Assembly (NCBI GenBank): GCA_018902845.1
Contig: JAHIPV010000020.1
Span: forward strand, 10,810-74,809
Direction: 5' to 3'
Length of the DNA: 64,000 nt
From: Patescibacteria group bacterium
GTDB lineage: Bacteria; Patescibacteriota; Microgenomatia; UBA12405
Part shown: piece by piece, positions 1,064-64,000 of the stretch
Layout of the letters: each line of letters opens with the position of its first letter
How positions within the stretch are numbered: the first letter of the stretch is position 1
The notes under the pieces: generated by a model
What the model was told of the DNA's origin: nothing
Seen by the model: only the letters and a program-made list of their open reading frames with translations
The model's database searches: none
Program-made: the position numbers and the translations under genes

Positions 1064-1218
1064 CGTCATTCCGAGTGAACGAAGTGAATCGAGGAATCTC
1101 TGAAATTGTTTCAGAATTCCGACTTTGTCGGAGACCTCGCATTCGCGAGACCTGCCTGTCGGTAGGCATGGGATCCTTCGACTTCTCCGCCAGTTGGCGG
1201 ATTCGCTCAGGATGACAG
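1064..1218. repeat. Family-B palindromic repeat element (~150 bp) with terminal inverted repeats GTCATTCCGAG...CTCAGGATGAC and an internal palindrome TCCGCCAGTTGGCGGA
   Basis: The termini are inverted copies of each other. Modules are shared with the copies at 9391-9507 and 61843-61933. The two small ORFs predicted here (1000..1215 +, 1046..1243 -) are encoded by the repeat itself. Confidence 0.6.
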
Positions 1219-1225
1219 GTGTTAT

Positions 1226-1336
1226 GTTTGTTTTATTCGTCATCCTGAACGTGAGTGAAGGATCTAGCGTTAGCGTTTATAATACGGCACTTTGTGCCTA
1301 GATTCTTCTCCCCCTGCGGGTGATCAGGATGACGAC
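1226..1336. repeat. Family-B palindromic repeat (TTCGTCATCCTGAACG ... GATTCTTCTCCCCCTGCGGGTGATCAGGATGACG)
   Basis: The 34-bp core GATCCTTCTCCCCCTGCGGGTGATCAGGATGACG recurs at 3460-3494 and 3770-3803. It overlaps the 3' end of CDS 1233..2711 and supplies its C-terminal residues (...RHPDHPQGEKN...). Confidence 0.6.
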
Positions 1337-2711
1337 TGTAAAATTTTAAAATTTTGTAATAGATTCCTATCATAATCCAAAAAAGATAAGCGGTTTTGGA
1401 GGCTTCAAAAACATCAATAAAAATAGCGTTGGCCAAAGTGGTCAAAAGACAGGCTAAAAATATGTAAATAAGATAATTTTGGTTTTTCTTTAGAGAGTGA
1501 ATGAAGAACCAAAAGAGAATGATAAAGAATGACAAAAAACCAAAAATACCCGATTCGCCCAGGAGTCTTAGATAATCATTGTCGGTGGCCAGTGTGATTG
1601 AACCGAGGCCGGTGCCAAGTAATGGGTTTTTGTAAAAAGCATTAAGGGCGCGGGGCCACTCAACGTTAAATCTGATTTCTCCGGAGCGGGAGACTCCGGC
1701 ATCAATATCAACTTCCGGATATTCTGGTGGTGTTGGATGTCTAAAAATTGTGGGAATGGGGGTGGTTTTTGACTTTGGTGTTGGGATTGGGGAAATTTTG
1801 AGTTTTAGTGTTGGTTGTGGTGACGGGGATGGAAGGATTACCGTTACTGTTGGCTTTGGCTTGAGTGTTTGAATAGTGGCAACAAGGCGGTCATTTAGTT
1901 GGTCGGATTTAAATAAATTTAAAATAACCAAAAGAGAAACAGGAATAATCCAGATCTTTTTTTTGATAAACAGAAGCATAAATATAGCTCCTCCCCAAAA
2001 AGCAAAAATTGAAATGCGGGAGACGGTAAAAACAAGCAATTGAAATAAAATTAACCAGATTATTAGAATTGGGATTTTTAATAAGCTTTTTTTTGATTTG
2101 AGAGTTATTCCAAGGATTAAAACAAGAATCACACTAAGAAAGGCGGCTAAATCGTAGTGGCCGGCAAAAGCAGCACTGATTCTTGACCACTTGGTTAAAT
2201 TTAAGATATAGCCTTTGGAAAATTCCTCATTCATGGTTGAAATGATGGGCCAGTTGAAATATTTTTGGCCATAACCATAAAGAGCCACAAATATGGAAGC
2301 TATTATCAAGAAAAAGAAGGGATATTTCAGATCTTTTTTAGACTGAACAGCGTCTATGGCTACAAAAGCAACAAGCATATATTCGATACGGCGAAGAAAG
2401 TGAAGAATCAGCAAATTAACAGGAGTGGTTTTTAGAATTAATATGGCATGAAGAGTAGAAAGAAAAATACCAGCAAAGTAAATTAAAAATAGTTTAAAAA
2501 GTGGGTTTTTAAAAACGGGTAATCTTTTTTTAATTTGTAAGATTGCCCAGATTAGTATAGAAACAGAGATAATAATGTCGTCGAGGCGAATGGCAACATA
2601 TGTATTTTTGACTGTAGATAGTGGAAATTTAGGATAAAGAGGGATAAAGAGGATAAGGATGGCTAAGACTGGCCTTAAGATATTGAACTTTTTTGTTATA
2701 TTTTTGAACAT
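1233..2711 (-). CDS. Polytopic membrane protein with internal Pro/Thr-rich linker, possible O-antigen ligase/polymerase-like (Wzy_C-like)
   Basis: 492 aa with many predicted TM helices and a PT-rich spacer (PKPTVTVILPSPSPQPTLKLKISPIPTPKSKTTPIP). Its C-terminal tail is encoded by a family-B repeat. Confidence 0.45.
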   Translation of the reverse strand: MFKNITKKFNILRPVLAILILFIPLYPKFPLSTVKNTYVAIRLDDIIISVSILIWAILQIKKRLPVFKNPLFKLFLIYFAGIFLSTLHAILILKTTPVNLLILHFLRRIEYMLVAFVAIDAVQSKKDLKYPFFFLIIASIFVALYGYGQKYFNWPIISTMNEEFSKGYILNLTKWSRISAAFAGHYDLAAFLSVILVLILGITLKSKKSLLKIPILIIWLILFQLLVFTVSRISIFAFWGGAIFMLLFIKKKIWIIPVSLLVILNLFKSDQLNDRLVATIQTLKPKPTVTVILPSPSPQPTLKLKISPIPTPKSKTTPIPTIFRHPTPPEYPEVDIDAGVSRSGEIRFNVEWPRALNAFYKNPLLGTGLGSITLATDNDYLRLLGESGIFGFLSFFIILFWFFIHSLKKNQNYLIYIFLACLLTTLANAIFIDVFEASKTAYLFWIMIGIYYKILKFYSRHPDHPQGEKNLGTKCRIINANARSFTHVQDDE

Positions 2712-3721
2712 AAGTTGCGATAGTTAGGTTTTATTATACTGCGTAAAAGAATTCCCGTTTTAATAAATAGTTTGGCAGTTTTGTATTGAAGTATGGATTT
2801 GTGTTTTTTAAAAAATGCTAGGATACCCTTGTATTCGTTGATTAGTTTATTCTGGTGGTGAGTGGCCGAGGCGCCACCCAGGTGAATTATTTGAGGGCCG
2901 ATTAAATACCAGATTTGAGTTTTGGGGTCAGATTTTTTTATACGATAGCACCATTCCAGTTCTTCGGCATACATGAAATAATTTTTATCAAAACCTTTTG
3001 TTTGGTTTATGGTTGATTTTCTAATAAGCATAAAAGCAGCGGTAACCCAGTCCTGTTGATGGTCTTTTTTATAAAAATTATCGTGAGTATAAAATTGAGG
3101 AGTGTGAGGGTGAATTGGGGGGATGAGTTTATTTATTAATGGCAAATCATCAAGTCCGATGGACCAGGCTAGAGTGTTTAAAAGATTGGGAAAGAAACCT
3201 CCGGAAGCTTGAATGGATTTATCCTTGTTTAGTAATTGGGCCGTACAGATGGAAGCTTCCGGATGAGCTGAGAGCCAGTTTAAAGATTGGCTGATGGCCG
3301 AATGAAGAATTAGAGTATCGGAGTTGAGAAAAAGAACATAGTTACCCTTGGCTAGTTTGATTCCTTGATTATTGGCACGGGCAAAACCTATATTTCGATT
3401 GTTTTTAATGATTGTAAAGTTAGGAACGTCATTCTGAGCAGAGCGAAGAATCTCAAGGGGATCCTTCTCCCCCTGCGGGTGATCAGGATGACGTTGTGTA
3501 AAAAATTTTTTGATAGCGGAAACTGAATCGTCTTTTGAGGCGTTGTCAATAACTATTATTTCGGTAGGGGTTTTGTGATCATCCTCCACAGGCGGACTAC
3601 GCGTTCGCTTGTTTTTTAGATTAAATTCCAGGCCTTTGTCTTTTAAAATTGATCTAAGGCAATCAATGGTAATTTTACTGGTATTGTAGGAAATAACGAT
3701 GATGGATAAAACGGGATTCAT
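2696..3721 (-). CDS. Glycosyltransferase family 2
   Basis: N-terminal motifs LSIIVISYNTSKITIDCLRSIL and IIVIDNASKDDS. The start is probably Met at 3721 (MNPVLSII); the upstream part of the ORF back to 3766 is repeat-derived (MTNKT). Repeats B (3426-3494) and D (3581-3618) are embedded in frame. Confidence 0.75.
   Translation of the reverse strand: MNPVLSIIVISYNTSKITIDCLRSILKDKGLEFNLKNKRTRSPPVEDDHKTPTEIIVIDNASKDDSVSAIKKFFTQRHPDHPQGEKDPLEILRSAQNDVPNFTIIKNNRNIGFARANNQGIKLAKGNYVLFLNSDTLILHSAISQSLNWLSAHPEASICTAQLLNKDKSIQASGGFFPNLLNTLAWSIGLDDLPLINKLIPPIHPHTPQFYTHDNFYKKDHQQDWVTAAFMLIRKSTINQTKGFDKNYFMYAEELEWCYRIKKSDPKTQIWYLIGPQIIHLGGASATHHQNKLINEYKGILAFFKKHKSILQYKTAKLFIKTGILLRSIIKPNYRNLCSKI
3426..3494. 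repeat. Family-B repeat copy inside the GT2 CDS
   Basis: CGTCATTCTGAGCAGAGCGAAGAATCTCAAGGGGATCCTTCTCCCCCTGCGGGTGATCAGGATGACG. It encodes HPDHPQGEKDPLEILRSAQNDV in the protein. Confidence 0.65.
3581..3618. repeat. Family-D repeat (CACAGGCGGACTACGCGTTCGCTTGTTTT)
   Basis: Near-identical copies at 5691-5728 and 8511-8532. It encodes KRTRSPPVE in frame. Confidence 0.55.
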
Positions 3722-3730
3722 ATTCAATGT

Positions 3731-3803
3731 TTTGTTCGTCATTCTGAACGAAGTGAAGAATCTCAATGGGATCCTTCTCCCCCTGCGGGTGATCAGGATG
3801 ACG
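3731..3803. repeat. Family-B repeat copy (between the GT2 start and the next CDS)
   Basis: TTCGTCATTCTGAACGAAGTGAAGAATCTCAATGGGATCCTTCTCCCCCTGCGGGTGATCAGGATGACG. Confidence 0.65.
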
Positions 3804-5325: not shown

Positions 5326-6459
5326 CTATTTTTTGATTTCGATTGAATTAAATACCTGAATTATTCGTTTGGCGGCGATTGACCAAGTAAAATTTTTTGA
5401 GTTTTTTTGTCCCAGTTTGGAATATTTTTGGTGAATTTTGGGATTAATGATTTGGCGTATGGCGTTGACCAGCTCATCTTGTTTTCTTGGATTAAAAAAA
5501 ATAGCAGAATTACCAAGAACTTCTTTTAGTATAGAAATATTACTAGCCAAAACCGGAGTACCCAGTTTTTGGGCTTCGATGGCAATAATACCAAAGCCTT
5601 CGTAAGTACTGGGAATAACTAGGGCTTTGGCGTTTTTTAGCAAAACCCATTTTTGTTTTTCTGTGATGTAATCTGTAAAAATTATTTGTTCCACCAAAGG
5701 CGGACTGCGCGTTTGCTTGTTTGCGAGGTTTAATTTTTTGACGGTGGAAAAAATATTGTTAAAAAGCCAGCCTTTTTTACCGGCAATAACGAGTTGAAGA
5801 GAAGGAGAATTTTTCTTTGAGAATGATTTGATTAAAAATGGAATGTTTTTGGAAGGTTTAAGAGTGCCAAAATGAAGAAGATAGGGTTTTTGAATTTTAA
5901 ATTTTGATAGGATTAGCCTGCTTTGTTTGGCGGTGGTAGATATGGGAGTGGAAACGCCCGGATAAGCAACGGTAATTTTTTCTGTTTGGATGTTATATTT
6001 TTTTATAATTTGTCTTTTGGTGAATTTGGAGATGGCAATTATGTGGCTGGCTTTTTTGATTGAATGGTTGGTCCAATTAGTTAGTTGATATAGGTCTTTT
6101 TTAGTAAATTGGCCAGGATATCTTAAAAAGCCTAGATCCATTATGGAACAGATAGTGGGGCAGGAGGAAAAATAAGGTGAATAGTGGCTGAGTGAGAAAA
6201 AAAGGTCCAAAGGTGTGTTTTGGGTATACAGTTTAATAGGCAGAGCAAGTCGAGTCCAAAGTTTTTTGGGTCCAAATACACAATATTGCCAGTTTTTGGA
6301 TGGTTTTGGTAGATCATAAAGAGGCGGATTTTTTAGGTAGATGATGTAATTGTTGGTTTTGTCCAGCTTGTGAATATGAGTAAGAATATTGTAAGCATAT
6401 TGACCGATACCGACGCGATCCTTTATGTTTGCTTCGTTGCCATCGATTCCTATTAGCAT
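5326..6459 (-). CDS. Glycosyltransferase family 4 (GT-B, group 1)
   Basis: C-terminal E-x7-E motif PSTYEGFGIIAIEAQKLGTPVLASN. An in-frame family-D repeat encodes KQTRSPPLVEQ. Confidence 0.8.
   Translation of the reverse strand: MLIGIDGNEANIKDRVGIGQYAYNILTHIHKLDKTNNYIIYLKNPPLYDLPKPSKNWQYCVFGPKKLWTRLALPIKLYTQNTPLDLFFSLSHYSPYFSSCPTICSIMDLGFLRYPGQFTKKDLYQLTNWTNHSIKKASHIIAISKFTKRQIIKKYNIQTEKITVAYPGVSTPISTTAKQSRLILSKFKIQKPYLLHFGTLKPSKNIPFLIKSFSKKNSPSLQLVIAGKKGWLFNNIFSTVKKLNLANKQTRSPPLVEQIIFTDYITEKQKWVLLKNAKALVIPSTYEGFGIIAIEAQKLGTPVLASNISILKEVLGNSAIFFNPRKQDELVNAIRQIINPKIHQKYSKLGQKNSKNFTWSIAAKRIIQVFNSIEIKK
5691..5728. repeat. Family-D repeat copy inside the GT4 CDS
   Basis: CAAAGGCGGACTGCGCGTTTGCTTGTTTGCGAGG. 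Confidence 0.55.
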
Positions 6460-6474
6460 AATTTAATTAAATCA

Positions 6475-6535
6475 TAAATTCTAATATCTAAATTCTAAAT
6501 AATTTCAAAATTCAAATGTTCAAAACTCTAAACAA
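6475..6535. repeat. Family-C AT-rich intergenic module (TAAATTCTAATATCTAAATTCTAAA ... TTCAAATGTTCAAAAC), probable promoter region
   Basis: Near-identical copy at 48627-48685. Both copies are followed by a palindrome-E plus family-A hairpin module, and both lie upstream of minus-strand gene starts. Confidence 0.5.
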
Positions 6536-6607
6536 TTTTAAACAATTTTAAATAACTTTGTATTTTAGACAGGTTACAAACCTATTTCCAGACAAATATT
6601 GTTTTTT

Positions 6608-6635
6608 GCGGGCGACCGCAAGGGTCGCCCCTACA
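6608..6635. repeat. Family-A hairpin repeat GCGGGCGACCGCAAGGGTCGCCCCTACA
   Basis: Perfect 8-bp stem GGGCGACC/GGTCGCCC around a GCAAG loop. Four copies in the window; this one overlaps the 3' end of GT4 6631..7833. Confidence 0.7.
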
Positions 6636-7833
6636 GTAGCATTTTTTTGTAAATTTGCAATGTTTGGTGGGCGGTTTTGGTCCAGGAGAATTTGGAGGCT
6701 TGAATTAGACCTTTTTTGATGAGGGATTGGTGAAGCTTGGGAGAAATAGCTATTTTTTGAATAGCATTTTTAATGCTTTGGGTGGATTTTGGATTGATTA
6801 AAATTGTGGCGTTACCGGCTACTTCCGGCATGGAAGAAGTGTTGCTGGTGATAACCGGAGTACCGATAGACATGGCTTTTAGAATTGGCAATCCAAAACC
6901 TTCGTAAAGAGATGGATAAATAAGGGCGATAGCAGCGGCGTGAAGTGGAACCATGTCTTTTTCGGGAATATAGCCAAGAATTTTTATGGAGGATTGTTGA
7001 CAGATCCCTCGACTACGCTTCCAGCCAGAGGCGGACGCGGCGGGATGACATATGTCATTTCCCCAGCCGTATTTACCGGCGATGGCCAGTTGAAGGTTTG
7101 AGGTTGGATGTAAAAGTTTGAAGTTAGTAAATGCTTTGATTAATCGTGAGAGGTTTTTGCGGGGTTCACGGGTGCCTTGGGCGAGAATAAAATCGTCTAA
7201 TCCATATTTTTTCTTGATTTGATTAATTTGAATTTGCGGGCGACCGCAAGGGTCGCCCCTACACTTTTGTTTGAGTTGGTAAAATTTGGAATATTTTTTG
7301 GCTACGGCTTCGTAAATTACCGATGTAGTGTTGGAATTAATTTTTGGGAAAAGTTTAAGCAAATCTTTTTGAGTGTTTTTTGAAACACAAATAAAATGAG
7401 AACAGTGTTTTGTGGCTAGTTTCATTTTTTGAGTATGGGTGGAGATTATTTTTTGATCAAGCCATTGAGGATATATAAAAGGGGTAAGGTCGTGTATGGT
7501 GGTAATTAATTTAGCTTGTCTAGCTGGTGGTTGAGTCCAGTCAGAGGTATGAAAAACGTCGCATTTACCGATGAATGATTCTACGGGGAGAATATGGAGT
7601 TTGTTGAAAAGAATTTCTAGGAGTGTTATGGGTAGACGAAAATGAAAAATTTTTACATTAGAATGTTTTTTTAGCTTTTTGATTTCTGGTGGTAGTGGTT
7701 GACGGAGAGATGAAAAAAAAAGTTTATAAGTATTGGTTTTGTCTATTTTGACAAGATTTTTGACTAATTCTCGTGTGTAATTAGAAACTCCGGTGCCATA
7801 AGGGATAGATGAAATATCAATACCAATGATCAT
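6631..7833 (-). CDS. Glycosyltransferase family 4
   Basis: IYPSLYEGFGLPILKAMSIGTPVITSN. It carries an in-frame family-A hairpin (CRGDPCGRPQ) and a family-B-like insert (HPAASASGWKRSRG). Confidence 0.8.
   Translation of the reverse strand: MIIGIDISSIPYGTGVSNYTRELVKNLVKIDKTNTYKLFFSSLRQPLPPEIKKLKKHSNVKIFHFRLPITLLEILFNKLHILPVESFIGKCDVFHTSDWTQPPARQAKLITTIHDLTPFIYPQWLDQKIISTHTQKMKLATKHCSHFICVSKNTQKDLLKLFPKINSNTTSVIYEAVAKKYSKFYQLKQKCRGDPCGRPQIQINQIKKKYGLDDFILAQGTREPRKNLSRLIKAFTNFKLLHPTSNLQLAIAGKYGWGNDICHPAASASGWKRSRGICQQSSIKILGYIPEKDMVPLHAAAIALIYPSLYEGFGLPILKAMSIGTPVITSNTSSMPEVAGNATILINPKSTQSIKNAIQKIAISPKLHQSLIKKGLIQASKFSWTKTAHQTLQIYKKMLL
7003..7062. repeat. Family-B-like repeat fragment inside the GT4 CDS
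   Basis: GATCCCTCGACTACGCTTCCAGCCAGAGGCGGACGCGGCGGGATGACATATGTCATT, with the GGATGACA terminus and an ATGACATATGTCAT palindrome. Confidence 0.45.
7236..7264. repeat. Family-A hairpin copy inside the GT4 CDS
   Basis: TTGCGGGCGACCGCAAGGGTCGCCCCTACA. Confidence 0.7.
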
Positions 7834-8548: not shown

Positions 8549-9703
8549 CTAGACTTGTTTATATTTTAGTATATTTTTTCTTTTTTTAAGCATTTTGGGG
8601 AGATTTAGAATAATTTGTCCATAAGTAGTGATTAGGCTGGTTGGAAGAATATAAACAGATTTTAGCTTGTAAATTTTTATAGTTTGTTTTATTAAGCCAG
8701 AAAGATTGCGGAGGCGCTCTATAATAATTGGAAATAAATTATTTAGGATTTCTTTTTTGGAGTAATTTTTTATGATGATATAAAACCAGTTTTTGGCATC
8801 CATACGATTTCTAAAATTACCCATTTTAGAGCTGGTGGCGCCACCGATGTGGTAAGAAATTGCTTGGGGGATAAACAGAGTTTTATATTTTAAGTTATGC
8901 AAACGAAGAGCCAGGTCAACATCTTCTTCGTAAGCAAAAAAATCTGGATCAAACATGCCGATTTTTAAGAGTGTAGCTTTGTGATAGCAAACGATAGAAG
9001 CGGAGCTTCCCCAAACGAAATATGATGCGTCATTCTGAGACGAAGTCGAAGAATCTTTTTGTTGACTTTGATTCCGACGAGATTCTTCGTTGGCACTCAG
9101 AATGACGGGTTTTCCGTTGTCGATGTTGAGGGCTTTGCCTGAAATAAAAAATTTGAGTCCCCTGCTTTCTATCTTGGTACCGTTTTTATTTAGAACAGTG
9201 CCAAAAAAAGTAACAATTTTTGGATTTTTGTTGGTTCTTATAGCCAGAGAAATATGCTTGAACCAGTTTTTATCAATAGTCAAATCGTTATTGCAGATAA
9301 TTACATGATTGTATTTGGCTTTTAAAATTCCTTGGTTGACGGCTTTGGCAAAACCAAAGTTTGAAGAATTCTGGATGATTTGATAAGAAATGTCATTCCG
9401 AGTGGAACGAAGTGGAATCGAGGAATCTCTTGACTTGTTCAAGTTTCTCGCTTTGCGAGAATTCTGAGATAAACTCAGAGATCCCTCGACTTCGCTCGGG
9501 ATGACAGAGGGAGTATTTGTGATGATGGTTTCGAATGTTTGAATACTGTTATCAGTGGAGGCGTTGTCAACCAAAATAATTTCAAAATTTTTGATTTTGG
9601 CCAGTTTCAGAGATGACAAAAGAGAGTTAAGGCAATTAGGTAAAAATTTAGCGCCATTTAAGTTAGGAATGATGATGGAGACGGAAAAATCTTGATTTTT
9701 CAA
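8549..9703 (-). CDS. Glycosyltransferase family 2
   Basis: FSVSIIIPNLNGAKFLPNCLNSL ... IILVDNASTDNS. Two family-B repeats are inserted in frame. Confidence 0.8.
   Translation of the reverse strand: MKNQDFSVSIIIPNLNGAKFLPNCLNSLLSSLKLAKIKNFEIILVDNASTDNSIQTFETIITNTPSVIPSEVEGSLSLSQNSRKARNLNKSRDSSIPLRSTRNDISYQIIQNSSNFGFAKAVNQGILKAKYNHVIICNNDLTIDKNWFKHISLAIRTNKNPKIVTFFGTVLNKNGTKIESRGLKFFISGKALNIDNGKPVILSANEESRRNQSQQKDSSTSSQNDASYFVWGSSASIVCYHKATLLKIGMFDPDFFAYEEDVDLALRLHNLKYKTLFIPQAISYHIGGATSSKMGNFRNRMDAKNWFYIIIKNYSKKEILNNLFPIIIERLRNLSGLIKQTIKIYKLKSVYILPTSLITTYGQIILNLPKMLKKRKNILKYKQV
9037..9117. repeat. Family-B repeat inside the GT2 CDS, with inverted termini CGTCATTCTGAG / CTCAGAATGACG
   Basis: GCGTCATTCTGAGACGAAGTCGAAGAATC ... 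GAGATTCTTCGTTGGCACTCAGAATGACGG. Confidence 0.65.
9391..9507. repeat. Family-B repeat (~115 bp) inside the GT2 CDS
   Basis: TGTCATTCCGAGTGGAACGAAGTGGAATCGAGGAATCTC ... GATCCCTCGACTTCGCTCGGGATGACAG. The 5' module is nearly identical to 1071-1100. Confidence 0.65.
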
Positions 9704-11723: not shown

Positions 11724-13004
11724 CTATTTGTCAAGATGTTTTACCAGATTATTTATTATTTTATCCCATGTATGGTTTTGTTTTATATAGTTATAGCCGT
11801 TTTGGGAAAGTTTACGGTAGAGCTTGGGATTATTTAATAGTTTTTGGATTTGTTTGATCAAATCATTTAGTGAGTTTTTTTTGAATATCAGTCCCCCATT
11901 GGATTTATTTATTAATTCTTTGACCGGTGGAATATTAGCGCCGATTACCGGTTTTTGGCGGGCCATGGCTTCTATAAAAGTAAGGCCAAAACTTTCATGA
12001 ATGGAGGGATTGACCAAAATGGTGCAATTGTCTAAGTAGTACTTTAGGGTTTTGGGGTTATAGCGCTTGGGTGTAATAGTAATTTTTTGGCGGATATTTT
12101 TGGGGATATTGTTCAAAAGTTTTTGGATTTTGGGATAGTATAAAGTTTTTTGACCTGCTATTGTCAGGGTTAGACTTGGATATTTAATTGACAGTTTTTC
12201 AAAGGCTTGGATTAGTAGTTCAATGCGTTTGTGGGCGGAAAAATTACCAAGAAATAAAATAACTGGATTGTTCGGGCGACCGTAAAGGTCGCCCCTACAG
12301 TAGACTGGTTTTAAAAATGATTTGTCGATGCCGGCGCCGAGGGGTAAAAATTTTGATTTGAGGATATGATATTTTTTGGAAAGATAGTTGGCTTCGTGTT
12401 GGGTTAGGGTCCAGATTAAATTGGAATTTTGGAGGGTTTTTATAAGAGGTTTGCGAGAAAAGGCAAGGTCGAATTGATGAAAACAGGGAAGAGTCAACAG
12501 TTTAGATTTGGTGAGCTTCTGAACAAGTTTTGAATATAAAACTATGGTGGTTGGAAGAGGGCCGGCTATAACCCAGTCGGGTTTGAATTTATGAATTTTG
12601 ATTAGAGCTTTTATAAATGGAATGAATTTGAAAATAGGGCCGAGTTGAAGGATGCCAAGAAGATTTAAAAAAAAAGATCCTTCACTGTGTTCAGGATGAC
12701 GTGGAGACAGTTTTTGAGAAATTAATGAGAGTAGTTTGAGGGGGCGACGAAGGTGTTTGTAGACGGGAAGGCGGATTGTTGGACGACTGCTCCGATGCTC
12801 ACTGTGTTCGAGCGGAGTGCCTTTGGCAGATGATTGGATGACTGGTGATTTAGATGTGACAAAATCATCGGTTGAATAACAGTTGGTAGTCAGGACCATG
12901 ATTTGATGGCCTTTTTTGCCAAGGTACTCCCCTGTTTTGGCTATGATTTTTGATCCGCCGTCAACAGCGGGAGGGAAAATGTGGGTTAGGAGTAAGATTC
13001 GCAT
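11724..13004 (-). CDS. Glycosyltransferase family 4
   Basis: VNPSIHESFGLTFIEAMARQKPVIGAN. It carries a family-A copy (CRGDLYGRPNNP) and family-B-like inserts (PRHPEHSEGS). Confidence 0.8.
   Translation of the reverse strand: MRILLLTHIFPPAVDGGSKIIAKTGEYLGKKGHQIMVLTTNCYSTDDFVTSKSPVIQSSAKGTPLEHSEHRSSRPTIRLPVYKHLRRPLKLLSLISQKLSPRHPEHSEGSFFLNLLGILQLGPIFKFIPFIKALIKIHKFKPDWVIAGPLPTTIVLYSKLVQKLTKSKLLTLPCFHQFDLAFSRKPLIKTLQNSNLIWTLTQHEANYLSKKYHILKSKFLPLGAGIDKSFLKPVYCRGDLYGRPNNPVILFLGNFSAHKRIELLIQAFEKLSIKYPSLTLTIAGQKTLYYPKIQKLLNNIPKNIRQKITITPKRYNPKTLKYYLDNCTILVNPSIHESFGLTFIEAMARQKPVIGANIPPVKELINKSNGGLIFKKNSLNDLIKQIQKLLNNPKLYRKLSQNGYNYIKQNHTWDKIINNLVKHLDK
12273..12304. repeat. Family-A hairpin (degenerate: CGGGCGACCGTAAAGGTCGCCCCTACA) inside the GT4 CDS
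   Basis: Same stem as the other A copies, with a variant loop. Confidence 0.6.
12675..12702. repeat. Family-B fragment inside the GT4 CDS
   Basis: GATCCTTCACTGTGTTCAGGATGACG. A related degenerate copy lies at 12787-12826. Confidence 0.5.
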
Positions 13005-13070: not shown

Positions 13071-13120
13071 TTGACACGTCTTCGTATACTTTAGATAATA
13101 TAAAGTATATGAAGACGTAT
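13071..13120 (+). promoter_or_regulatory. Putative abiEi promoter and operator: TTGACA-N17-GATAAT overlapping a 17-bp inverted repeat
   Basis: The arms CGTCTTCGTATACTTTA and TAAAGTATATGAAGACG differ by one mismatch and flank the -10 element and the ATG. An extra half-site ATAAAGTATAT lies at 13014-13030. Confidence 0.5.
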
Positions 13121-13702
13121 GATTTAGCATTATTAACTAAAGAGTTGGCAGAATCGGGAATATTGTTTTTTGATTTAAAAACTTTAAGAGATATTTTGAA
13201 TATTAAAAATGAAGATTCTTTTTTTGATGTAATAAAAAGATTGAGACGATCCGGAGTTATAAAAAAGATTGAACGAAACAAATATTTATTAAAAGGCAAG
13301 CTGGAGTTTAATGATTTTGCTTTGGCGAATTTTATTTATAGTCCTTCTTATGTTTCTTTTGAATCAGCTTTGAATTTTCATGGTATTTTGTCTCAATTCC
13401 CTTTGGAAATAAGTTCTGCTACCACTAAAAATACAAAGAAAAAATCAGTTGAAGGAAGGCACTTTTTTTATTGCCAGATTAAGAAGAGTTTGTTTTGGGG
13501 TTATGTTAAAAAAGATTCTTATTTGATGGCTGTGCCGGAAAAAGCATTGATAGATCAATTTTATTTATATACAAAAGGTTTGAAATCGTTTGGGGTTGAT
13601 GAATATGATTTATCTTTAATTAACAAGAGAGTTTTAAAGAAATATTTAATACGAATACCTGAAATTAAAAATAAATTGTTAAAAATTTGCGGGTTTTTAT
13701 GA
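13109..13702 (+). CDS. abiEi: AbiEi-like antitoxin / transcriptional regulator (type IV TA, abortive infection AbiE)
   Basis: It lies upstream of and overlaps a clear AbiEii-family gene, has the size expected for AbiEi, and has an inverted-repeat operator in its promoter. Confidence 0.55.
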   Translation: MKTYDLALLTKELAESGILFFDLKTLRDILNIKNEDSFFDVIKRLRRSGVIKKIERNKYLLKGKLEFNDFALANFIYSPSYVSFESALNFHGILSQFPLEISSATTKNTKKKSVEGRHFFYCQIKKSLFWGYVKKDSYLMAVPEKALIDQFYLYTKGLKSFGVDEYDLSLINKRVLKKYLIRIPEIKNKLLKICGFL

Positions 13703-14469
13703 TTGATAAAACTCAATTAAACAGTTTAGTAAAAAAATTTAAAATAAATGAAACTACTGTACTGAGGGAATATTTACAGGTTTGGTTTTTACAAAGATTA
13801 TATTCTGAATCAAAAAGTAAAAATATTTATTTTAAAGGAGGCACTGCCATTCATTTGATTTATAAGGCGCCTCGTTTTTCTGAAGATTTGGATTTTACGG
13901 TTAATATGGATGAAAAAGAGTTTTTGAAGTTTATTGAAAAGTTTTTTTCTGCTTTATCCGGGCTTGAACCTGTCAGTTTTAAACAAAGAAAAGTCTTGGC
14001 CGGTTTTAGATTTTTACTAACTTGCAAGTCAAGTGTGGTGAGTTATCCTGTTTTTATAAACCTTGATTTTTCTTTTAGGGAAATGGCATTGAAACCGGAA
14101 AAGTCGATTATAGAAACTGATTTTCCAATTATTTTTAATTCATATATTTATCATTTGTCTGCCGAGGAGATGTTGGCGGAAAAAGTAAGAGCTATTTTGA
14201 GCAGAAAGAAAGGAAGAGATATTTATGATTTGTGGTATTTATTGAATTTGGATACGAAATTTAACCGTGAATGGATTTTAAAGAAATTAGAATATTACAA
14301 AATGAAAAGTGTAGACATGGAAGAAATTGTGGGGCGAATAAATGGATTTGGGGCAAAACAATTTGTTTTGGATATGAGGCCTTTTGTTCCAATAAATGAA
14401 AAAGACAAGTTAGAATCTCTTTATGCTTATATTTGTGACTATATAAAGAGGAAACTAAAGGATAAGTAG
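13687..14469 (+). CDS. abiEii: AbiEii/AbiGii-family nucleotidyltransferase toxin (DUF1814)
   Basis: Motif YFKGGTAIHLIYKAPRFSEDLDF characteristic of the family; 16-bp overlap with the upstream gene. Confidence 0.75.
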   Translation: MRVFMIDKTQLNSLVKKFKINETTVLREYLQVWFLQRLYSESKSKNIYFKGGTAIHLIYKAPRFSEDLDFTVNMDEKEFLKFIEKFFSALSGLEPVSFKQRKVLAGFRFLLTCKSSVVSYPVFINLDFSFREMALKPEKSIIETDFPIIFNSYIYHLSAEEMLAEKVRAILSRKKGRDIYDLWYLLNLDTKFNREWILKKLEYYKMKSVDMEEIVGRINGFGAKQFVLDMRPFVPINEKDKLESLYAYICDYIKRKLKDK

Positions 14470-47751: not shown

Positions 47752-47762
47752 ATGGGTATTAT

Positions 47763-48604: not shown

Positions 48605-48626
48605 GAAGGTAGTATAAAGGAATAAA

Positions 48627-48685
48627 TCCTAAATTCTAATATCTAAATTCTAAACAATATTTAAATTCAAATGTTCAAAACTTAA
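48627..48685. repeat. Family-C AT-rich module, second copy
   Basis: CCTAAATTCTAATATCTAAATTCTAAACAATATTTAAATTCAAATGTTCAAAAC. Confidence 0.5.
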
Positions 48686-48727
48686 AATAAATTTAATGTT
48701 GTTATTGGGAGGAATGAAGTGATGCGT

Positions 48728-48757
48728 CTGCGGGCGACCGCAAGGGTCGCCCCTACG
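48728..48757. repeat. Family-A hairpin copy, intergenic
   Basis: CTGCGGGCGACCGCAAGGGTCGCCCCTACG. Confidence 0.7.
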
Positions 48758-48785
48758 AAGGGTGTGATGATGGGTGTTTTTCTGG

Positions 48786-48822
48786 GGGGATTCTTCGTGG
48801 AAACCTCAGAATGACGGTGGGA
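48786..48822. repeat. Family-B fragment, followed by palindrome E at 48843-48875 (TTAGACAGGTTAGAAACCTGTCTCTA)
   Basis: GGATTCTTCGTGGAAACCTCAGAATGACGGTGGGA. The palindrome-E arms AGACAGGTT/AACCTGTCT are perfect. Confidence 0.5.
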
Positions 48823-49492: not shown

Positions 49493-49545
49493 ACAATTAG
49501 ATAACTAGACAACTAGATTACTGGATTACTGGATGACTGGATAAA
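49489..49545. repeat. Octamer-family array (AGACAATTAGATAACTAGACAACTAGATTACTGGATTACTGGATGACTGGATAA)
   Basis: 8-bp periodic units. Confidence 0.7.
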
Positions 49546-49547
49546 AT

Positions 49548-49704
49548 GTTGTCATTGCGAGGAGTCCAACGACGTGGCAATCCCGCAGGAAGAGTAAAAA
49601 GGTGTTGATTAAAATCCCGACGGGATCCTCCAGAGGCGGACACGTTGCCATGTTGTCACGTAATAAATTAAGAAATTTAAACGTGATTTCCTCGCAATGA
49701 CAGG
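49548..49704. mobile_element. MITE-like element, ~157 bp, with 14-bp terminal inverted repeats TGTCATTGCGAGGA / TCCTCGCAATGACA
   Basis: The perfect termini are related to the family-B termini (GTCATTCYGAG). There is no coding capacity. Confidence 0.5.
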
Positions 49705-49706: not shown

Positions 49707-51539
49707 TTGGAGTTTGGTAGAATTGGAGATATGGGACAGAGGAAGATAAAAGCAGAAAGACGAAAAAAGAAAAACAAGGAGATCCTTCGCTACACTCAGG
49801 ATGACGGTGGGAGGCAGAATGACGGTGGGAGGATTCAGAACGACGGTGGGAGGCAGAATGACGGGGGGAGGGATTCGGGACGGGCTCGGTTTTGGTTTGG
49901 CAAGGTTGGAATAAGGGGAATATTGAGGGAGAATTGGAAGTTTTTGGTGATATTAACGATGGGGATTGTTTTGCTTTATTTGAATGCAATGAGAGGAGAT
50001 TTTGTGTCTGATGATTATGCCACTATTCCAAACAATCCTTTAATCAAGGATATGTCAGCCGGTTTTAAGGGTTTGAACGTTGTTTATATAAGCAATGTGA
50101 TTATCGCCAGACTTTTTGGAGTTACTCCCCTCCCTTTTCATTTGTATAGCCTCTTTTTGTTTATTTTGACTTGTGTGGTGGCTTTTCTTTTTTTGCGAGT
50201 TTTGTTTGGTGAAAAAGTAGCCAAATTAACGACAATTATTTTTGCCGTTCATCCGATTCATGTTGAGGCGGTTTCTTGGATTTCGGGAAAACCCTATACT
50301 TTGGCTTCTATGTTTATGTTGGCGGCTTTGCTGGTTGGAGTGTTTTTGGTGGAGACAAGGAAAAGAAAATATTTGATTTGGATGATAATTTTTGCTCTTT
50401 TGGCTTATCAGTCCGATGCGGCTAGGTCTTTATCTTTTATATTTTTGTTTTTGCTGTATTTGTGGTTTAGAGGTGGACTTGGAGGGATGAAAAAGCAGTT
50501 TTATAGATATTTGCCTTTTGTATTGGTTGTTATAACAACGGGAATTGTAATTTTGTGGCCTGGTATTAAGACAAGAATTGAGTCTGTTAATTCGGGATAT
50601 AATCGAGTTGGAAGTATTTTTTATAATCCGTTTTTTCAATATCCGACTTCGGTAACAAAGTATTTACAATTAATGCTGATTCCGGCTGATTTGACACTTT
50701 ATCACACTATGTATACTGTTCCGGTTTGGCTGAATTGGTTGGTTTTGGTGACATTTTTGTCTTTGTTGATATATTCTTTTTTTAGAGATAGAAAGATTTT
50801 TTTTGGATTGAGTTTTATGTTTTTGGCTTCGGTGGCTTCAATGGCGCCGGTTAAGGTTGGCTGGCTGGTGGCAGAAAGGTATATGTTTTTGGGGAGTTTG
50901 GGATTTTGCCTGGTACTGGTTTTGTTTTGGGACAGGATTCCTAAAAAACTGAAATTAGTAAAATTGACAGTTTTTGTATGTTTAATTATTGGTTTTACGG
51001 TTAGAACTTTTGTGAGAAATATTGATTGGCAAACTAATCATAAACTTTGGGTAAATACTGTTCAGACATCTCCAAACAGCCATAATGCTTGGAATAATAT
51101 TGGAGATGATTACGATAAATTAAAAGACTATGAAAACGCCATAAAGGGATTTACTCAATCAACTGTGATGAAGGCCAATTATGCCGATGCCTATCATAAC
51201 AGGGCCAATATTTATTTGAAAACCGGACGTTTGGATTTGGCCAGAGACAGTTATTTGACTGCTTTAAAATATTCCCCCGGTTTGTTTCAGACTTATGTGA
51301 GCTTGACTCAGGTTGAATTGATGCAGAAAAAACCTGAAAAGGCAATGGAATATGCCAAAAAAACGGTTGAGATGCAACCAAACAATTTTCAAGCCCATTA
51401 TGTTTTGGGGGTAGTTTTGGCTCAGTCGGGAAATAGAGAGGAGGCTTTAAAAGAGATAAAGATTTCTTTACAACTGAACCCTAATTTTGGGCCGGCTAAA
51501 GATGCGTTGGTTAAACTAAATTCAGATGAATCAAAATAA
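49707..51539 (+). CDS. Transmembrane + C-terminal TPR-repeat protein (TMTC/GT-C-like architecture)
   Basis: About 9 TM helices followed by 4-5 TPR units (NAWNNIGDDYDKLKDYENAIKGF ... AYHNRANIYLKTGRLDLARDSY ...). The first ~60 codons are repeat-derived, so the true start may be internal, for example near 49951. Confidence 0.55.
   Translation: MEFGRIGDMGQRKIKAERRKKKNKEILRYTQDDGGRQNDGGRIQNDGGRQNDGGRDSGRARFWFGKVGIRGILRENWKFLVILTMGIVLLYLNAMRGDFVSDDYATIPNNPLIKDMSAGFKGLNVVYISNVIIARLFGVTPLPFHLYSLFLFILTCVVAFLFLRVLFGEKVAKLTTIIFAVHPIHVEAVSWISGKPYTLASMFMLAALLVGVFLVETRKRKYLIWMIIFALLAYQSDAARSLSFIFLFLLYLWFRGGLGGMKKQFYRYLPFVLVVITTGIVILWPGIKTRIESVNSGYNRVGSIFYNPFFQYPTSVTKYLQLMLIPADLTLYHTMYTVPVWLNWLVLVTFLSLLIYSFFRDRKIFFGLSFMFLASVASMAPVKVGWLVAERYMFLGSLGFCLVLVLFWDRIPKKLKLVKLTVFVCLIIGFTVRTFVRNIDWQTNHKLWVNTVQTSPNSHNAWNNIGDDYDKLKDYENAIKGFTQSTVMKANYADAYHNRANIYLKTGRLDLARDSYLTALKYSPGLFQTYVSLTQVELMQKKPEKAMEYAKKTVEMQPNNFQAHYVLGVVLAQSGNREEALKEIKISLQLNPNFGPAKDALVKLNSDESK
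49797..49872. repeat. Tandem 21-bp repeat x3.5 (GGGAGGCAGAATGACGGTGGG-type), derived from a family-B terminus
   Basis: It would encode DDGGRQNDGGRIQNDGGRQNDGGR in frame. Confidence 0.7.
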
Positions 51540-58070: not shown

Positions 58071-58125
58071 GGTTACTGGACAATTAGATAACTGGATTAC
58101 TAGATTACTGGATAACTAGATAAAG
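58071..58125. repeat. Octamer-family array in a divergent promoter region
   Basis: GGTTACTGGACAATTAGATAACTGGATTACTAGATTACTGGATAACTAGATAAAG. Confidence 0.7.
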
Positions 58126-61842: not shown

Positions 61843-61933
61843 GCGTCATTCTGATCCGCCAGTTGGCGGAGAAGAATCCCAAGGGGAATTTGGTTCCGAG
61901 GGGATCCTTCGTTGCACTCAGGATGACGGCGGA
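61843..61933. repeat. Family-B palindromic repeat, intergenic
   Basis: GCGTCATTCTGATCCGCCAGTTGGCGGAGAAGAATCCC ... GGGGATCCTTCGTTGCACTCAGGATGACGG. It shares the TCCGCCAGTTGGCGGA module with the copy at 1183-1198. Confidence 0.65.
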
Positions 61934-61949
61934 TGGGCGATTGTAAAGG

Positions 61950-63104
61950 TTAATAATAGGTGTTTTCGATGGTTTGGGCATTTTTTATACTAAAATTATT
62001 TTTGGCGTATTTAAGGCAGTTTTTGGTTAGTTTTTTTAGTTGGTTTGGATTTTTATAAAAGAAACTTAATTCTTGTTTGAAATTTTTTAATGTAGGTGGA
62101 ATAATTTTGCCGACTTTATTATTAATTACATCAGGGATGGCCCCTTTGTTTGAAGCCAGGACCGGAGTACCGCAGAACAAAGATTCTATCGCCACTTTAC
62201 CAAAAGCTTCGTTATAAAGGGAAGGAAAAAGGAGAAGATCGGCCGATGAGTAGTAAAGGCTGAGTTTTTTGGGATTGATTTTTCCGGCGTAAAAAGTAAT
62301 GTTGGGAAACTTAATTGCTTTTTTTTCTAATTTTTCTTTTAATGGTCCGTGGTCGCCGATAACAATAAAGTGGATGTTGGGAAAGATAGAAATTAGTTTG
62401 ATAATTATTTTGATTCCTTTAATTGGGATAAGACGGCCGACAAAAATGGCGGTGAATTTGTTGGGAAGGTTTAGTATTTGACGGGCTTTGGACTTTGGAT
62501 GAGCTTTGAATTTTGTGTCATCAACCCAAAGGTAGTAAGTAGAGATCTTGTTGTTGTCGATTCCAATTTTAATCAGTTCTTTGGTTGAGGGTTGGGCTAG
62601 GGCCAAAATTTTGTCAAAAGAAGACAGAGTAAAAGAAGTTATTTTTGAGAATAATGAGGACTTTTGGAAGTTATAGATTGCGTAGGTGGAAGCGACAGTG
62701 CGAATTTTGAATATTTTTTTTAAGAGCATGGTAACAAAAGAGGCGTTTAGACCATGGGCATGAATAAGATCAAATCTCTGTTTTGTAAATATTAAAAAAA
62801 TGAAAGAACGTAAAAAAAGATATGGAGTCAGATAAAGAAATTCCAGAAACGGATATGGTTCCAGTTTGTGAAAAAGATTATGGCCCGGCCAACAAAAGCG
62901 ATGGATGGTGATGCGTTGTTTTTTTTCAAAACGAGGGGCGGGTGTGTTGATGGTTAACGGAGTAAAGGTAAGAACAGTAATTTGGTGACCATTCTTACTT
63001 AGATAGTTACATAAATCATCGAGATGGTTTTCTACTCCGCCTATATTAGGTTTGAAGAAAGGGGTGATCATTAATATTTTTTTTGGTTTTTTTATTGTTG
63101 CCAT
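61950..63104 (-). CDS. Glycosyltransferase family 4
   Basis: LFPSLYNEAFGKVAIESLFCGTPVLASN. The likely start is MATIKKPKKILMITPF near 63104; the predicted extension to 63206 overlaps the upstream gene. Confidence 0.75.
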   Translation of the reverse strand: MATIKKPKKILMITPFFKPNIGGVENHLDDLCNYLSKNGHQITVLTFTPLTINTPAPRFEKKQRITIHRFCWPGHNLFHKLEPYPFLEFLYLTPYLFLRSFIFLIFTKQRFDLIHAHGLNASFVTMLLKKIFKIRTVASTYAIYNFQKSSLFSKITSFTLSSFDKILALAQPSTKELIKIGIDNNKISTYYLWVDDTKFKAHPKSKARQILNLPNKFTAIFVGRLIPIKGIKIIIKLISIFPNIHFIVIGDHGPLKEKLEKKAIKFPNITFYAGKINPKKLSLYYSSADLLLFPSLYNEAFGKVAIESLFCGTPVLASNKGAIPDVINNKVGKIIPPTLKNFKQELSFFYKNPNQLKKLTKNCLKYAKNNFSIKNAQTIENTYY

Positions 63105-64000
63105 TTGGTGCGTGAAATTGGTTTTAATAATTTTAGGTGATATTTTATTGTTGTTAAGGAATAAGCAAAAAAAGAAATGAAACAGGCTAGTGGGTGAAAA
63201 AACCAAGCAGGATCCGGTTTTTTAAAATAGCCACGAAAAGAATCGATTATGGGGGGAAAGATAGTAAGAGTGTAGAGGGAGAATTTGATGATGCCGATGC
63301 GGTTAGTTTTTGACCAGTTGAATTGACGGATTGGTAGATAAGTGTAGTAATCAGTAAGACGGCGGAATTGTTTGCGGATAAATTTTGAAATTGATGATTC
63401 ACAATAAGAATGGATGATGCCGGTTTTGACTTTGGCAAAGTATAAGGGTTTTTGAGTTTTTTGTAGAATGGAAGAAATTAGATCGATGTCGAAGAAGTAA
63501 TTTGAAGGAGATCCTTCGACAGGCTCAGGATGACGGTGGAGGAAGGAAGAGCGAAGAATAGTTCCGTTGGCGCCGATGGTGGGAAGGGTGGAGTTTGGTT
63601 TTAGAGTAATTTTTATATATTGATCTTTATCTATTTGATCTATTTTTAGGCCAGTCCAAGTATTGGTTAAATATGAGAAGCGGTCATAGACCTTCGTAAC
63701 AAAAGCATAGGGGTCGTTGGCGCCGATTAATGCAGAGTAGCGTTCGATAAAGCCACCTGATTTGCGATAAGTAAATTTTATTGGTTCAGAGCCAATTAGA
63801 GAGGAGTCTTTTTCTAATGGTTTAATCATTTTTTTGAGCCAAGATTTGTTTGGTAAGATATTGTCTGAATCAATTAGGACAATATAGCGGTTTTTGGCCT
63901 TTTTTATGCCGATTGCTTTGGCGGACTCTCCCGTTTTTAGAGGGTTTTTGAAAATTTTGCATTTGTATCCTTTGGCGATTTTGATGGTTTTGTCGGTTGA
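63092..64000 (-). CDS. Glycosyltransferase (GT2-like), partial; N-terminus lies beyond the window end
   Basis: The frame stays open to the window edge and encodes ...NRYIVLIDSDNILPNKSWLKKMIKPLEKDSS with a DxD-like IDSDN. A family-B insert at 63508-63541 encodes HRHPEPVEGSP. Confidence 0.55.
   Translation of the reverse strand, partial: STDKTIKIAKGYKCKIFKNPLKTGESAKAIGIKKAKNRYIVLIDSDNILPNKSWLKKMIKPLEKDSSLIGSEPIKFTYRKSGGFIERYSALIGANDPYAFVTKVYDRFSYLTNTWTGLKIDQIDKDQYIKITLKPNSTLPTIGANGTILRSSFLHRHPEPVEGSPSNYFFDIDLISSILQKTQKPLYFAKVKTGIIHSYCESSISKFIRKQFRRLTDYYTYLPIRQFNWSKTNRIGIIKFSLYTLTIFPPIIDSFRGYFKKPDPAWFFHPLACFISFFAYSLTTIKYHLKLLKPISRTKWQQ
63508..63541. repeat. Family-B fragment inside the CDS
   Basis: GAGATCCTTCGACAGGCTCAGGATGACGGTGGAGG. 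Confidence 0.55.

Follow-up and report, generated by a model that had tools for sequence, protein, structure and literature searches.

How short palindromic repeats come to lie inside intact protein-coding genes, and whether the peptides they add are put to use or simply tolerated, is the question raised by a 64,000-nucleotide stretch of contig JAHIPV010000020.1 (positions 10,810 to 74,809; assembly GCA_018902845.1, Patescibacteria group bacterium), referred to here as the window. It has a G+C content of 34%, is about 94% coding and covers a glycan-biosynthesis region with 13 glycosyltransferase genes. Small hairpin-forming elements occur between these genes and also, in frame, within eight coding sequences (CDSs): a Wzy-like gene, six glycosyltransferase genes (three GT2 and three GT4) and a PMT_2/TPR gene. 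These elements are likely to be non-autonomous selfish palindromic DNA, of the same kind as the repetitive extragenic palindromes (REPs), their inverted doublets (REPINs) and the Rickettsia palindromic elements (RPEs), filtered by selection. We favour this explanation because the elements are depleted from coding DNA, have net insert lengths that are multiples of three, offer stop-free frames, and fall in loops of the models predicted by AlphaFold2 (AF2).

Anatomy of the repeat units

Family B is a unit of about 25 nt, (C/T)GTCAT-YCY-GA-centre-GA-RGR-ATC, called here a CGTC unit after its tag. A scan with the strict pattern GTCATYCYGA(3-45 nt)GARGRATC identifies 18 units in the window and none in 50 block shuffles; the tag reads CGTCAT in 15 of the 18 and TGTCAT in the other three. 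Variant units comprise one copy with a single mismatch, at 7003-7049, and two GTCATTGCGAG-type copies within 49551-49701. Fourteen of the strict units are arranged in seven convergent dimers of 65-152 bp (1065-1216, 1239-1333, 3428-3492, 3738-3802, 9029-9106, 9392-9505 and 61845-61927), the GTCATTGCGAG variants form an eighth (49551-49701), and five CGTC units in the window are solitary.

Each unit opens with an unpaired (C/T)GTC tag, followed by a 5-bp stem that starts with A-T and T-A pairs (ATYCY/RGRAT or ATTGC/GCAAT). Inside this stem a conserved tandem GA/GA bracket encloses a core made of a 2-3-bp stem and a GNA-type loop, giving 9-10 stacked positions per unit (five Watson-Crick pairs, the tandem GA/GA and two or three further pairs). 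The loops are mostly of 3 nt (GAA, GCA or GTA), or are enlarged by nested hairpins up to ∼30 nt, and two convergent units make up a composite hairpin that spans the whole dimer. The tails that follow ...GRATC are TCT, CCC, CCA and TAG in the window, and are mixed in other genomes.

Covariation is seen at both levels of the stem. Among the matches listed (185 units from 120 unrelated genomes), the commonest centre is 7 nt long (GC-GNA-GC, AC-GNA-GT or CC-GNA-GG), and pairing at its two inner positions is seen in 96% and 91% of the units, with GC/AT/CG covariation; the inner pairing and the GNA pattern also hold in units from viral contigs. The outer stem covaries between ATCCC/GGGAT in the window and ATTGC/GCAAT at the same site in a relative. 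With the DNA parameters of ViennaRNA the dimers fold with z values of -1.9 to -7.1 (-4.4 to -7.1 for four dimers longer than 69 nt), including -5.1 for 1239-1333, -5.7 for 9029-9106, -7.1 for 9392-9505 and -4.4 for 61845-61927, and the GTAG hairpin at 6605-6639 (below) gives -4.2. A solitary unit, a family D copy and a 39-nt insert gave no significant fold stability with these parameters, and the structural argument therefore rests on the covariation. The d(GCGNAGC) DNA mini-hairpin is extraordinarily stable (PMC13037366), which fits an element that acts as single-stranded DNA.

Two further families are hairpins of other sequence. Family A, GTAG-GGGCGACC-CTTGC-GGTCGCCC (GTAGGGGCGACC...GGTCGCCC), has an 8-bp GC-rich stem and a 5-nt loop and is present in four copies. 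Family D, TCCGCC-TNT-GGNGGA, is smaller and is present in two copies, one of them with GTAG; related TCCGCC...GGCGGA hairpins are nested within several CGTC units. The GTAG motif stands at the 5' foot of a GC-rich hairpin in all four family A copies and in one of family D, which makes these hairpins REP units of the classic type. The GTAG hairpins in the window are all solitary, with no REPINs among them; a candidate at 61743 proved to be a false positive of loose criteria. At 49797-49871 the head of a CGTC unit and its flank are repeated as a four-copy tandem array of 18 nt, CAGAATGACGGTGGGAGG, which is translated as (GGRQND)n. A GGTGG(G)AGG flank also follows three other solitary or dimer units (at 48815, 61927 and 63534). 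A weak match at 41864-41897 (62% identity) was rejected as a repeat, being the conserved EGWG motif of a GT4 enzyme.

Several elements lie between genes. The 152-bp composite dimer at 1065-1216 (units 1065-1098 on the plus strand and 1172-1216 on the minus strand) contains nested small hairpins and has the Wzy-like and PMT_2 genes on either side. A 65-bp dimer, 3738-3802, lies upstream of the GT2 gene 2696-3721, and an 83-bp dimer with a nested TCCGCCAGTTGGCGGA hairpin occupies 61845-61927. A divergent intergenic region carries a GTAG hairpin (48732-48756) and a solitary CGTC unit (48789-48815) on the minus strand within 48729-48815. The GTCATTGCGAG-variant dimer, 151 bp long with the ATTGC/GCAAT stem and a nested D-like hairpin (49551-49701), lies upstream of the PMT_2/TPR gene. 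Strict units, variants, array and hairpins together amount to roughly 30 modules, which agrees with a preliminary description of this DNA, made from the sequence alone, that had counted about 30 repeats in families occurring inside and between genes, some of them over 100 bp (9392-9505 measures 114 bp). The repeats are real: the three core sequences quoted in that description occur 3, 4 and 2 times against 0 expected.

Cassettes within reading frames

Comparison with orthologues or with the DNA of relatives reveals lineage-specific gain of a cassette in seven of the eight carrier CDSs, as a C-terminal tail in the Wzy-like protein and as insertions of 21, 39, 45, ∼60 (net), 78 and 114 nt elsewhere. 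Every insert has a net length divisible by 3, and each unit end is free of stop codons in two of three frames per sense. The ORFs agree with the gene calls of the source assemblies. The preliminary description had put the number of such genes at nine or more; eight could be verified and a ninth was not found, while the cassette peptides that it quoted are all present in the translations. Its reading of the cassettes as insertions is borne out by the alignments described below, in which the elements are on the minus strand unless stated otherwise.

In the GT2 gene 2696-3721 two elements are carried. A family D copy with GTAG (GTAG-TCCGCC-TGT-GGAGGA, 3582-3614) includes a 21-nt insertion, 3590-3610, encoding KNKRTRS, which is missing from all 24 orthologues (299-332 aa). 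A 65-bp CGTC dimer (3428-3492) encodes RHPDHPQGEKDPLEILRSAQND at the junction of helix α2 and strand β3; here HPDHPQGEKDPLEILRSAQN is missing from 23 of the 24 orthologues, and one (P0007) has an unrelated insert in that loop. The Pfam GT2 domain match is broken into two stretches. The first 15 codons of the longer ORF 2696-3766 ('MRFFTSFRMTNKT') were rejected: they run into the intergenic dimer and do not belong to the gene, which starts at 3721.

The second GT2 gene, 8549-9703 (minus strand), contains a 78-bp dimer (9029-9106, encoding VILSANEESRRNQSQQKDSSTSSQND) and a 114-bp dimer with three nested hairpins (9392-9505, encoding VIPSEVEGSLSLSQNSRKARNLNKSRDSSIPLRSTRND). The resulting cassettes of ∼40 and ∼24 aa are missing from all but near-identical orthologues, the one at 9029-9106 being found among the orthologues only in P0121, which is 95% identical (A2 alignment). 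In the third, 63092->64156 (minus strand), a solitary CGTC unit (63510-63534) encodes RHPEPVEGS within a called gene of 354 aa, the evidence here being at the level of the ORF.

The GT4 gene 11724-13004 (minus strand) has three cassettes that are common only to its nearest relatives, at nested depths. A GTAG hairpin (12273-12303) encodes CRGDLYGRPN and is present in P0241/L137 but not in P0242/L139; a 45-nt insertion (12669-12713) that contains the solitary CGTC unit 12676-12700 encodes SPRHPEHSEGS; and a 39-nt double mini-hairpin (12790-12828) encodes AKGTPLEHSEH. In the GT4 genes 6631-7833 and 5326-6459 the cassettes are insertions relative to 15-16 homologues. In the former, a solitary CGTC unit with a nested TCCGCC..GG hairpin (7003-7049) encodes ICHPAASASGWKRSRGI, an insertion of ∼14-17 aa relative to the closest homologue (P0361) and others, and a GTAG hairpin (7233-7263) encodes CRGDPCGRPQ and adds 7 aa in a loop that is variable, again relative to P0361. 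A further GTAG hairpin (6605-6639) lies at the 3' end of this gene, and the TAG of its tag (6631-6633), as read from the sequence, is the stop codon. In GT4 5326-6459 (minus strand) a family D copy (5690-5722) encodes ANKQTRSPPLV, a unique insertion of ∼11 aa compared with 16 homologues.

The two remaining carriers have their elements near the protein termini. In the Wzy-like gene (1233-2711, minus strand) the last 33 codons and the stop codon derive from a 95-bp dimer (1239-1333; units 1239-1264 on the plus strand and 1301-1333 on the minus strand) and its flank, with the stop just after the unit, giving the C-terminal tail RHPDHPQGEKN...SFTHVQDDE. In the PMT_2/TPR gene (49731-51539, plus strand) a solitary CGTC unit (49781-49805) and the 18-nt array lie antisense to the gene, in frame, at 49777-49871 and encode EILRYTQDDGGRQNDGGRIQNDGGRQNDGGR. 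Orthologues keep the N-terminal MSQ(K/R)KLKK, followed by a spacer before the first transmembrane helix that is ∼30 aa shorter than in the window protein (MGQRKIKAERRKK); the cassette is therefore internal to the CDS. A reading of this repeat as 5' untranslated region, with a TTG start at 49923, was rejected since the MSQKKLKK N-terminus is conserved upstream of it.

That the carrier genes are misassembled or decayed, or that the cassettes are ancient protein motifs with no relation to a DNA repeat, is most improbable. The repeats do break some assemblies: three end inside the intergenic dimer 3738-3802, at 3764-3775 (these include the ends of contigs L006-L008), and a chimeric GC-rich contig end in GCA_022013015.1 (JAKLRA010000043.1; L134, 1-207) joins at ∼6663, beside the GTAG hairpin. 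A 433-aa variant of GT4 6631 in that assembly was rejected as a product of the chimeric end and not a real variant. The intragenic copies, however, are spanned by contigs, independent assemblies of several samples agree at 100% identity in the repeat-bearing genes, and no polymorphism was found among contigs of the same population from other samples. In the orthologue alignments the host proteins keep all family-invariant residues, and their Pfam domains are full-length. With these residues kept and independent assemblies identical, the carrier genes are neither pseudogenes nor misassemblies. Nor are the cassettes, which orthologues lack, conserved protein motifs, because the same DNA is also intergenic and is read in several senses and frames (RHPE..., VILS..., ...QDD). 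In the translations HP(E/D) and Q(D/N)D are each observed five times, and VI(L/P)S twice. Tryptic peptides predicted to cross the cassette junctions include HPDHPQGEK, TRSPPVEDDHK and GDPCGRPQIQINQIK.

In the AF2 model of GT2 2696-3721 the predicted local distance difference test score (pLDDT) falls below 50 only at cassette residues 37-45 and 78-98, with flanking values of 73-92 per 10-residue block; in GT2 8549-9703 it does so only at cassette residues 71-95 and 204-227, with flanks mostly above 90. The cassettes are the only long low-confidence stretches in both models and lie between confident strands and helices. The solved GT-A structure 5hea has 13 residues where GT2 8549 has 53. The models suggest that the cassettes are probably extra, floppy or disordered peripheral loops that are compatible with the fold.

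Orthologues from other Shapirobacteria (P0256, P0292, P0289, P0007, P0012, P0060, P0149 and P0152) carry repeated in-frame cassettes of their own, such as VLAHQRT/VLEHQST, present 4-5 times in one protein, FKGKTGLSGKDF, present twice, NSLKIKNCKLKI, and an N-terminal SPALSREGLREG. Judged from these sequences, in-frame repeat cassettes appear to be general in the Shapirobacteria clade.

Distribution, turnover and origin

Units are 11-fold less dense in coding than in non-coding DNA of the window (0.20/kb against 2.3/kb; binomial p 2e-6). That 12 of the 21 units are nonetheless found inside genes is because only 6% of the window is non-coding. When a unit is taken as embedded if an ORF of at least 60 codons extends on both sides of it, 8 of 17 units in the window are embedded, compared with 13 of 185 in other genomes among the matches listed (Fisher p 5e-5).

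Comparison of the window with relatives of 75-91% nucleotide identity (L010 82%, L137 91%, L139 84% and L140 75%) shows, at the level of sequence, that copies are gained and lost between close relatives. The syntenic relative L010 is without the 21-nt D insert of GT2 2696 and without the dimer 3428-3492 (∼60 nt net), having another small hairpin at that site; the upstream dimer 3738-3802 is present with a different loop (a 7-nt difference). In its Wzy-like gene the first unit is kept, 78 nt (1222-1299) are absent and the stop lies in another unit, resulting in a different repeat-derived tail; downstream of this gene it is without 78, 20 and 26 nt of nested material, and at the position of 1065-1216 it has a smaller element, with a GTAG hairpin in place of the window's CGTC unit. 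One site without an element in the window holds an 84-nt GTCATTGTGAGG-type element in L010. The 39-nt insertion 12790-12828 shows a clean presence/absence difference between the window, where it is present, and L137, and the 45-nt insertion 12669-12713 is missing from L139 and other orthologues. L140 is without the 78-nt dimer 9029-9106, and has a GTCATTGCGAG-type ATTGC/GCAAT dimer at the same junctions as the 114-nt dimer 9392-9505. None of the seven dimers is flanked by a target-site duplication, and neither are the clean junctions of the 39-nt and 84-nt elements.

Neighbouring copies resemble each other. Dimers 3428-3492 (intragenic) and 3738-3802 (intergenic, 310 bp upstream) share 93% identity, which suggests local copying or conversion. 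The 39-nt insertion 12790-12828 and the CGTC unit 12676-12700, ∼100 nt downstream in the gene, have in common an 11-nt loop, GAACACAGTGA, which may point to template switching nearby or to a single subfamily.

A host function at the RNA or DNA level, in which the elements stabilise mRNA, act as terminators, pause translation or bind proteins, as REPs are proposed to do, and the cassettes are a side effect, is unlikely. It would account for the copies that stand directly at gene 3' ends (1239-1333, 6605-6639 and 61845-61927) and for a structure conserved with covariation, and REPs elsewhere are described as lying preferentially 3' of ORFs in the account of Di Nocera et al. (PMC3733652). The GTAG hairpin of GT4 6631, however, is followed on the sense strand by an A-run and not a T-run, the copies differ between close relatives, and Rfam (gathering thresholds) and tRNA scans of the window gave no match. 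Orientation, moreover, tracks the DNA strand and not the gene, as the antisense unit in the plus-strand TPR gene demonstrates.

This strand rule is strict. GC skew is +0.2 to +0.47 in each 2-kb block of the window and +0.33 overall, independent of gene strand, and resembles a G/C strand disparity that has been reported genome-wide in some other Microgenomates (PMC7143001). In the window, its 13-kb flanks and one relative, the C-rich strand carries about 17 of 17 solitary units and GTAG hairpins (p about 1.5e-5), and the rule includes the unit inside the PMT_2/TPR gene. Strand-specific orientation is expected for single-stranded-DNA (HUH-type) transposition (PMC6006769). A more far-reaching proposal is that the hairpins are active now in this Microgenomates lineage, are moved in one strand orientation by an enzyme specific for single-stranded DNA, and colonise identical loops by a targeting that is exploited to vary surface-glycan enzymes. 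We regard this as doubtful; were it true, a tiny, strand-asymmetric genome would be the simplest place to find the CGTC enzyme.

The choice of genes raises the question of adaptive diversification, in which the modules would be recruited or targeted to remodel loops of GT-A, GT-B, GT-C and Wzy enzymes and so give lineage-specific surface glycans to an episymbiotic cell of the Candidate Phyla Radiation (CPR). Within the window 6 of the 13 glycosyltransferase genes hold inserts, as against none of the 43 other genes (Fisher p 5e-5), with 5 of 5 against 0 of 6 at 1-13 kb; the same loops have received different cassettes across lineages, and the other Shapirobacteria orthologues with cassettes of their own (VLAHQRT, FKGKTGLSGKDF) would also fit. 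Against this, the models show the cassettes as disordered, placed between secondary-structure elements at the periphery, and each peptide follows simply from an open frame of the DNA repeat. Non-coding DNA holds identical elements at about 11 times the density, the unit is also found in the housekeeping gene pheT of a member of the Rickettsiales, and loop length in glycosyltransferases is known to vary, so that tolerance would be enough. Adaptive diversification is, in our judgement, improbable, and both the concentration of inserts in glycosyltransferases and the repeated occupation of a given loop, by one element or another depending on the lineage, are most simply explained by tolerance. 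Between the two alternatives offered by the preliminary description, the low-confidence loops and the depletion from coding DNA favour insertion at permissive loops; a diversification mechanism is not favoured.

For selfish palindromes filtered by selection, the following course would apply. Insertion would occur anywhere, and selection would remove most coding insertions. The survivors would have lengths of 3n, a stop-free frame in a GC-rich element, and positions in peripheral loops or termini of tolerant proteins; their cassettes would become hydrophilic and probably disordered segments with no required function. With the segment 94% coding, more than half of the surviving copies would then be intragenic, and neighbouring copies would homogenise each other. 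Less certainly, movement may proceed through single-stranded hairpin DNA by a strand-specific enzyme (HUH/RAYT-like or other, RAYT being REP-associated tyrosine transposase) encoded elsewhere in the genome.

Several observations weigh against this explanation. Pfam tables and ORFs reveal no transposase (RAYT/Y1, IS110 or other) in the window and its 13-kb flanks, 77 kb in total, so the mobilising step is only inferred, and for CGTC elements in general Di Nocera et al. found no dedicated transposase (PMC3733652). Different family members occupy identical junctions in GT2 8549 and L140; this could reflect an old insertion followed by conversion, or site-specific targeting, and is not predicted by purely random insertion. 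The skew at 1-13 kb (length-weighted p about 0.007) exceeds what simple tolerance obviously predicts. The solitary unit folds with z +0.3, a value obtained with ViennaRNA DNA parameters that may not credit tandem GA pairs and GNA triloops. Finally, the cassette peptides are predicted from ORF translation.

The window and its host can be described as follows. Its other genes encode Wzy-like and PMT_2-family membrane proteins, sugar-nucleotide enzymes, radical-SAM enzymes and an ABC exporter (Pfam). Window proteins are matched exactly in the metagenome-assembled genomes (MAGs) GCA_018895715.1, GCA_018898085.1 and GCA_022013015.1 and in several ENA/Logan assemblies. Because the nearest named homologues come from 'Candidatus Shapirobacteria' and 'Patescibacteria group' bacteria, the repeat host is, on this sequence evidence, a Shapirobacteria-like CPR bacterium (Patescibacteria) of the Microgenomates type. 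Tandem arrays of 8-nt units (TAGATAAC / CCGGATAA / ACTGGATT), with as many as 14 copies, closely precede genes at 16823-16934, 47110-47140, 47760-47793, 49490-49542 and 58075-58123; in GCA_022013015.1 the array at 16823 is shorter by one unit, so that copy number is variable in the population. An AT-rich 74-nt block of TAAATTC-type repeats is present at 6468-6541 and 48623-48696 (88% identity between the copies), each directly upstream of the start of a minus-strand gene with a GTAG hairpin slightly further upstream, and may be a shared promoter or leader cassette. Genes of toxin-antitoxin or defence type are found among the glycan genes (13109-14469, 19048-20109, 48953-49492 and 46518-47751); they include an AbiEii gene immediately preceded by a 197-aa gene with no Pfam match, two Fic/DOC genes, and a tandem pair of NYN-domain paralogues whose upstream regions are duplicated.

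Relation to known palindromic elements

The CGTC unit is widespread. It occurs in at least 120 loci of species-representative genomes from many phyla, which among the matches listed include Chloroflexota, Nitrospirota, Acidobacteriota, Bacteroidota, Planctomycetota, Saccharibacteria, Paceibacterota, Rickettsiales and others. Units with a GC-GNA-GC centre are also present in at least 120 viral contigs of IMG/VR (L141-L260), as phage DNA or in proviral host flanks. In a Rickettsiales MAG (JAJTHB010000013.1; L059, 3858-4111) a unit dimer lies in frame in pheT, the gene for the phenylalanyl-tRNA synthetase beta subunit (VIPNAQAEGSKDSSPMARND). A full-text literature search for the unit sequence returned unrelated primer matches only. 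A ∼25-nt unit of d(GCGNAGC) type is common to many phyla and viral contigs, and its strict strand orientation makes the small genome studied here suitable for the hunt for a CGTC mobiliser.

The GTAG- and CGTC-tagged REP superfamilies were defined by Di Nocera et al. in 2013 (PMC3733652), and by their sequences the elements described here appear to fit them, with differences, in a comparison made with the text descriptions in that paper. CGTC elements are described there as having stems that start with AT, with dimers predominating. The likeness extends to the unpaired CGTC tag, for which the superfamily also allows TGTC or CCTC, the A-T/T-A start of the stem, the prevalence of inverted dimers with structured spacers, the intragenic copies and the lack of a nearby transposase gene. 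The stem here, with about 9 stacked positions, is interrupted by the conserved tandem GA/GA; the superfamily stem is 8-9 bp. In place of a loop of 4-5 nt there is mostly a GNA of 3 nt, or else an inserted hairpin, and the tail appears to be C(T/C)C, the superfamily consensus being CCA.

GTAG REPs and REPINs are mobilised by RAYT tyrosine (HUH) transposases (PMC3116915, PMC3337134, PMC6006769), and GTAG REPs often donate a TAG stop codon, according to the text of PMC3733652. Family A resembles them in its GTAG, 8-bp GC-rich stem and 5-nt loop, in the use of TAG as a stop codon, in the lack of a target-site duplication and in a strand-specific orientation such as single-stranded-DNA transposition gives. 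It differs in that the copies are solitary and not doublets, that two are inside coding sequence, and that the 77 kb contain no RAYT gene. Miniature inverted-repeat transposable elements derived from insertion sequences (ISs) can likewise give in-frame fusions, as described for Coxiella QMITE, the Anabaena elements, ERIC and BOX (PMC10969869, PMC5896051). They share with the present elements a short, non-autonomous form, inverted ends and the possibility of in-frame read-through; here, in contrast, there are no target-site duplications and no parent IS with matching ends, and the ends are themselves hairpins.

The consequences for annotation of CPR genomes are practical ones: spurious N-terminal extensions, split Pfam domains, inflated clusters of 'novel' proteins and contig breaks. 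More generally, gene-dense AT-rich genomes force GC-rich, stop-poor repeats into proteins.

Rickettsia palindromic elements were reportedly described by Ogata et al. in 2000. They have since been reviewed (PMC10969869), and CGTC-1 and CGTC-4 of R. conorii are equated with RPE-6 and RPE-4 respectively in the text of Di Nocera et al. (PMC3733652). The analogy with RPEs drawn in the preliminary description was therefore apt, while its view that in-frame tolerance is rare elsewhere was overstated, intragenic GTAG and CGTC REPs being documented in several species in the same text. Both systems consist of palindromes inserted in frame into many unrelated ORFs, in a genome that is small and AT-rich; intergenic copies exist as well, and the inserts add hydrophilic peptide segments that are missing from orthologues. 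The host here belongs to the Patescibacteria (Shapirobacteria-like) instead of the Alphaproteobacteria; the elements are built of modules (25-nt units on their own, 65-152-bp dimers and nested hairpins), with GTAG hairpins also in frame; and the carriers in the window are almost only glycan-synthesis genes. The link to RPEs would run through the equation of CGTC elements with RPE-4 and RPE-6 and through the unit in the Rickettsiales MAG, and not through a sequence match to named families.

Our literature searches returned no earlier report of RPE-like in-frame palindromes in the CPR. As far as that literature goes, the single-strand orientation of the solitary copies and the concentration in glycosyltransferases with recurrent use of the same loops are new. 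We conclude that what is new here is the Patescibacteria host, the local density, the strict single-strand orientation and the recurrent loop use, and that the phenomenon itself is of a known kind: the RPE phenomenon, selfish palindromes within protein-coding genes, is extended to the Candidate Phyla Radiation.

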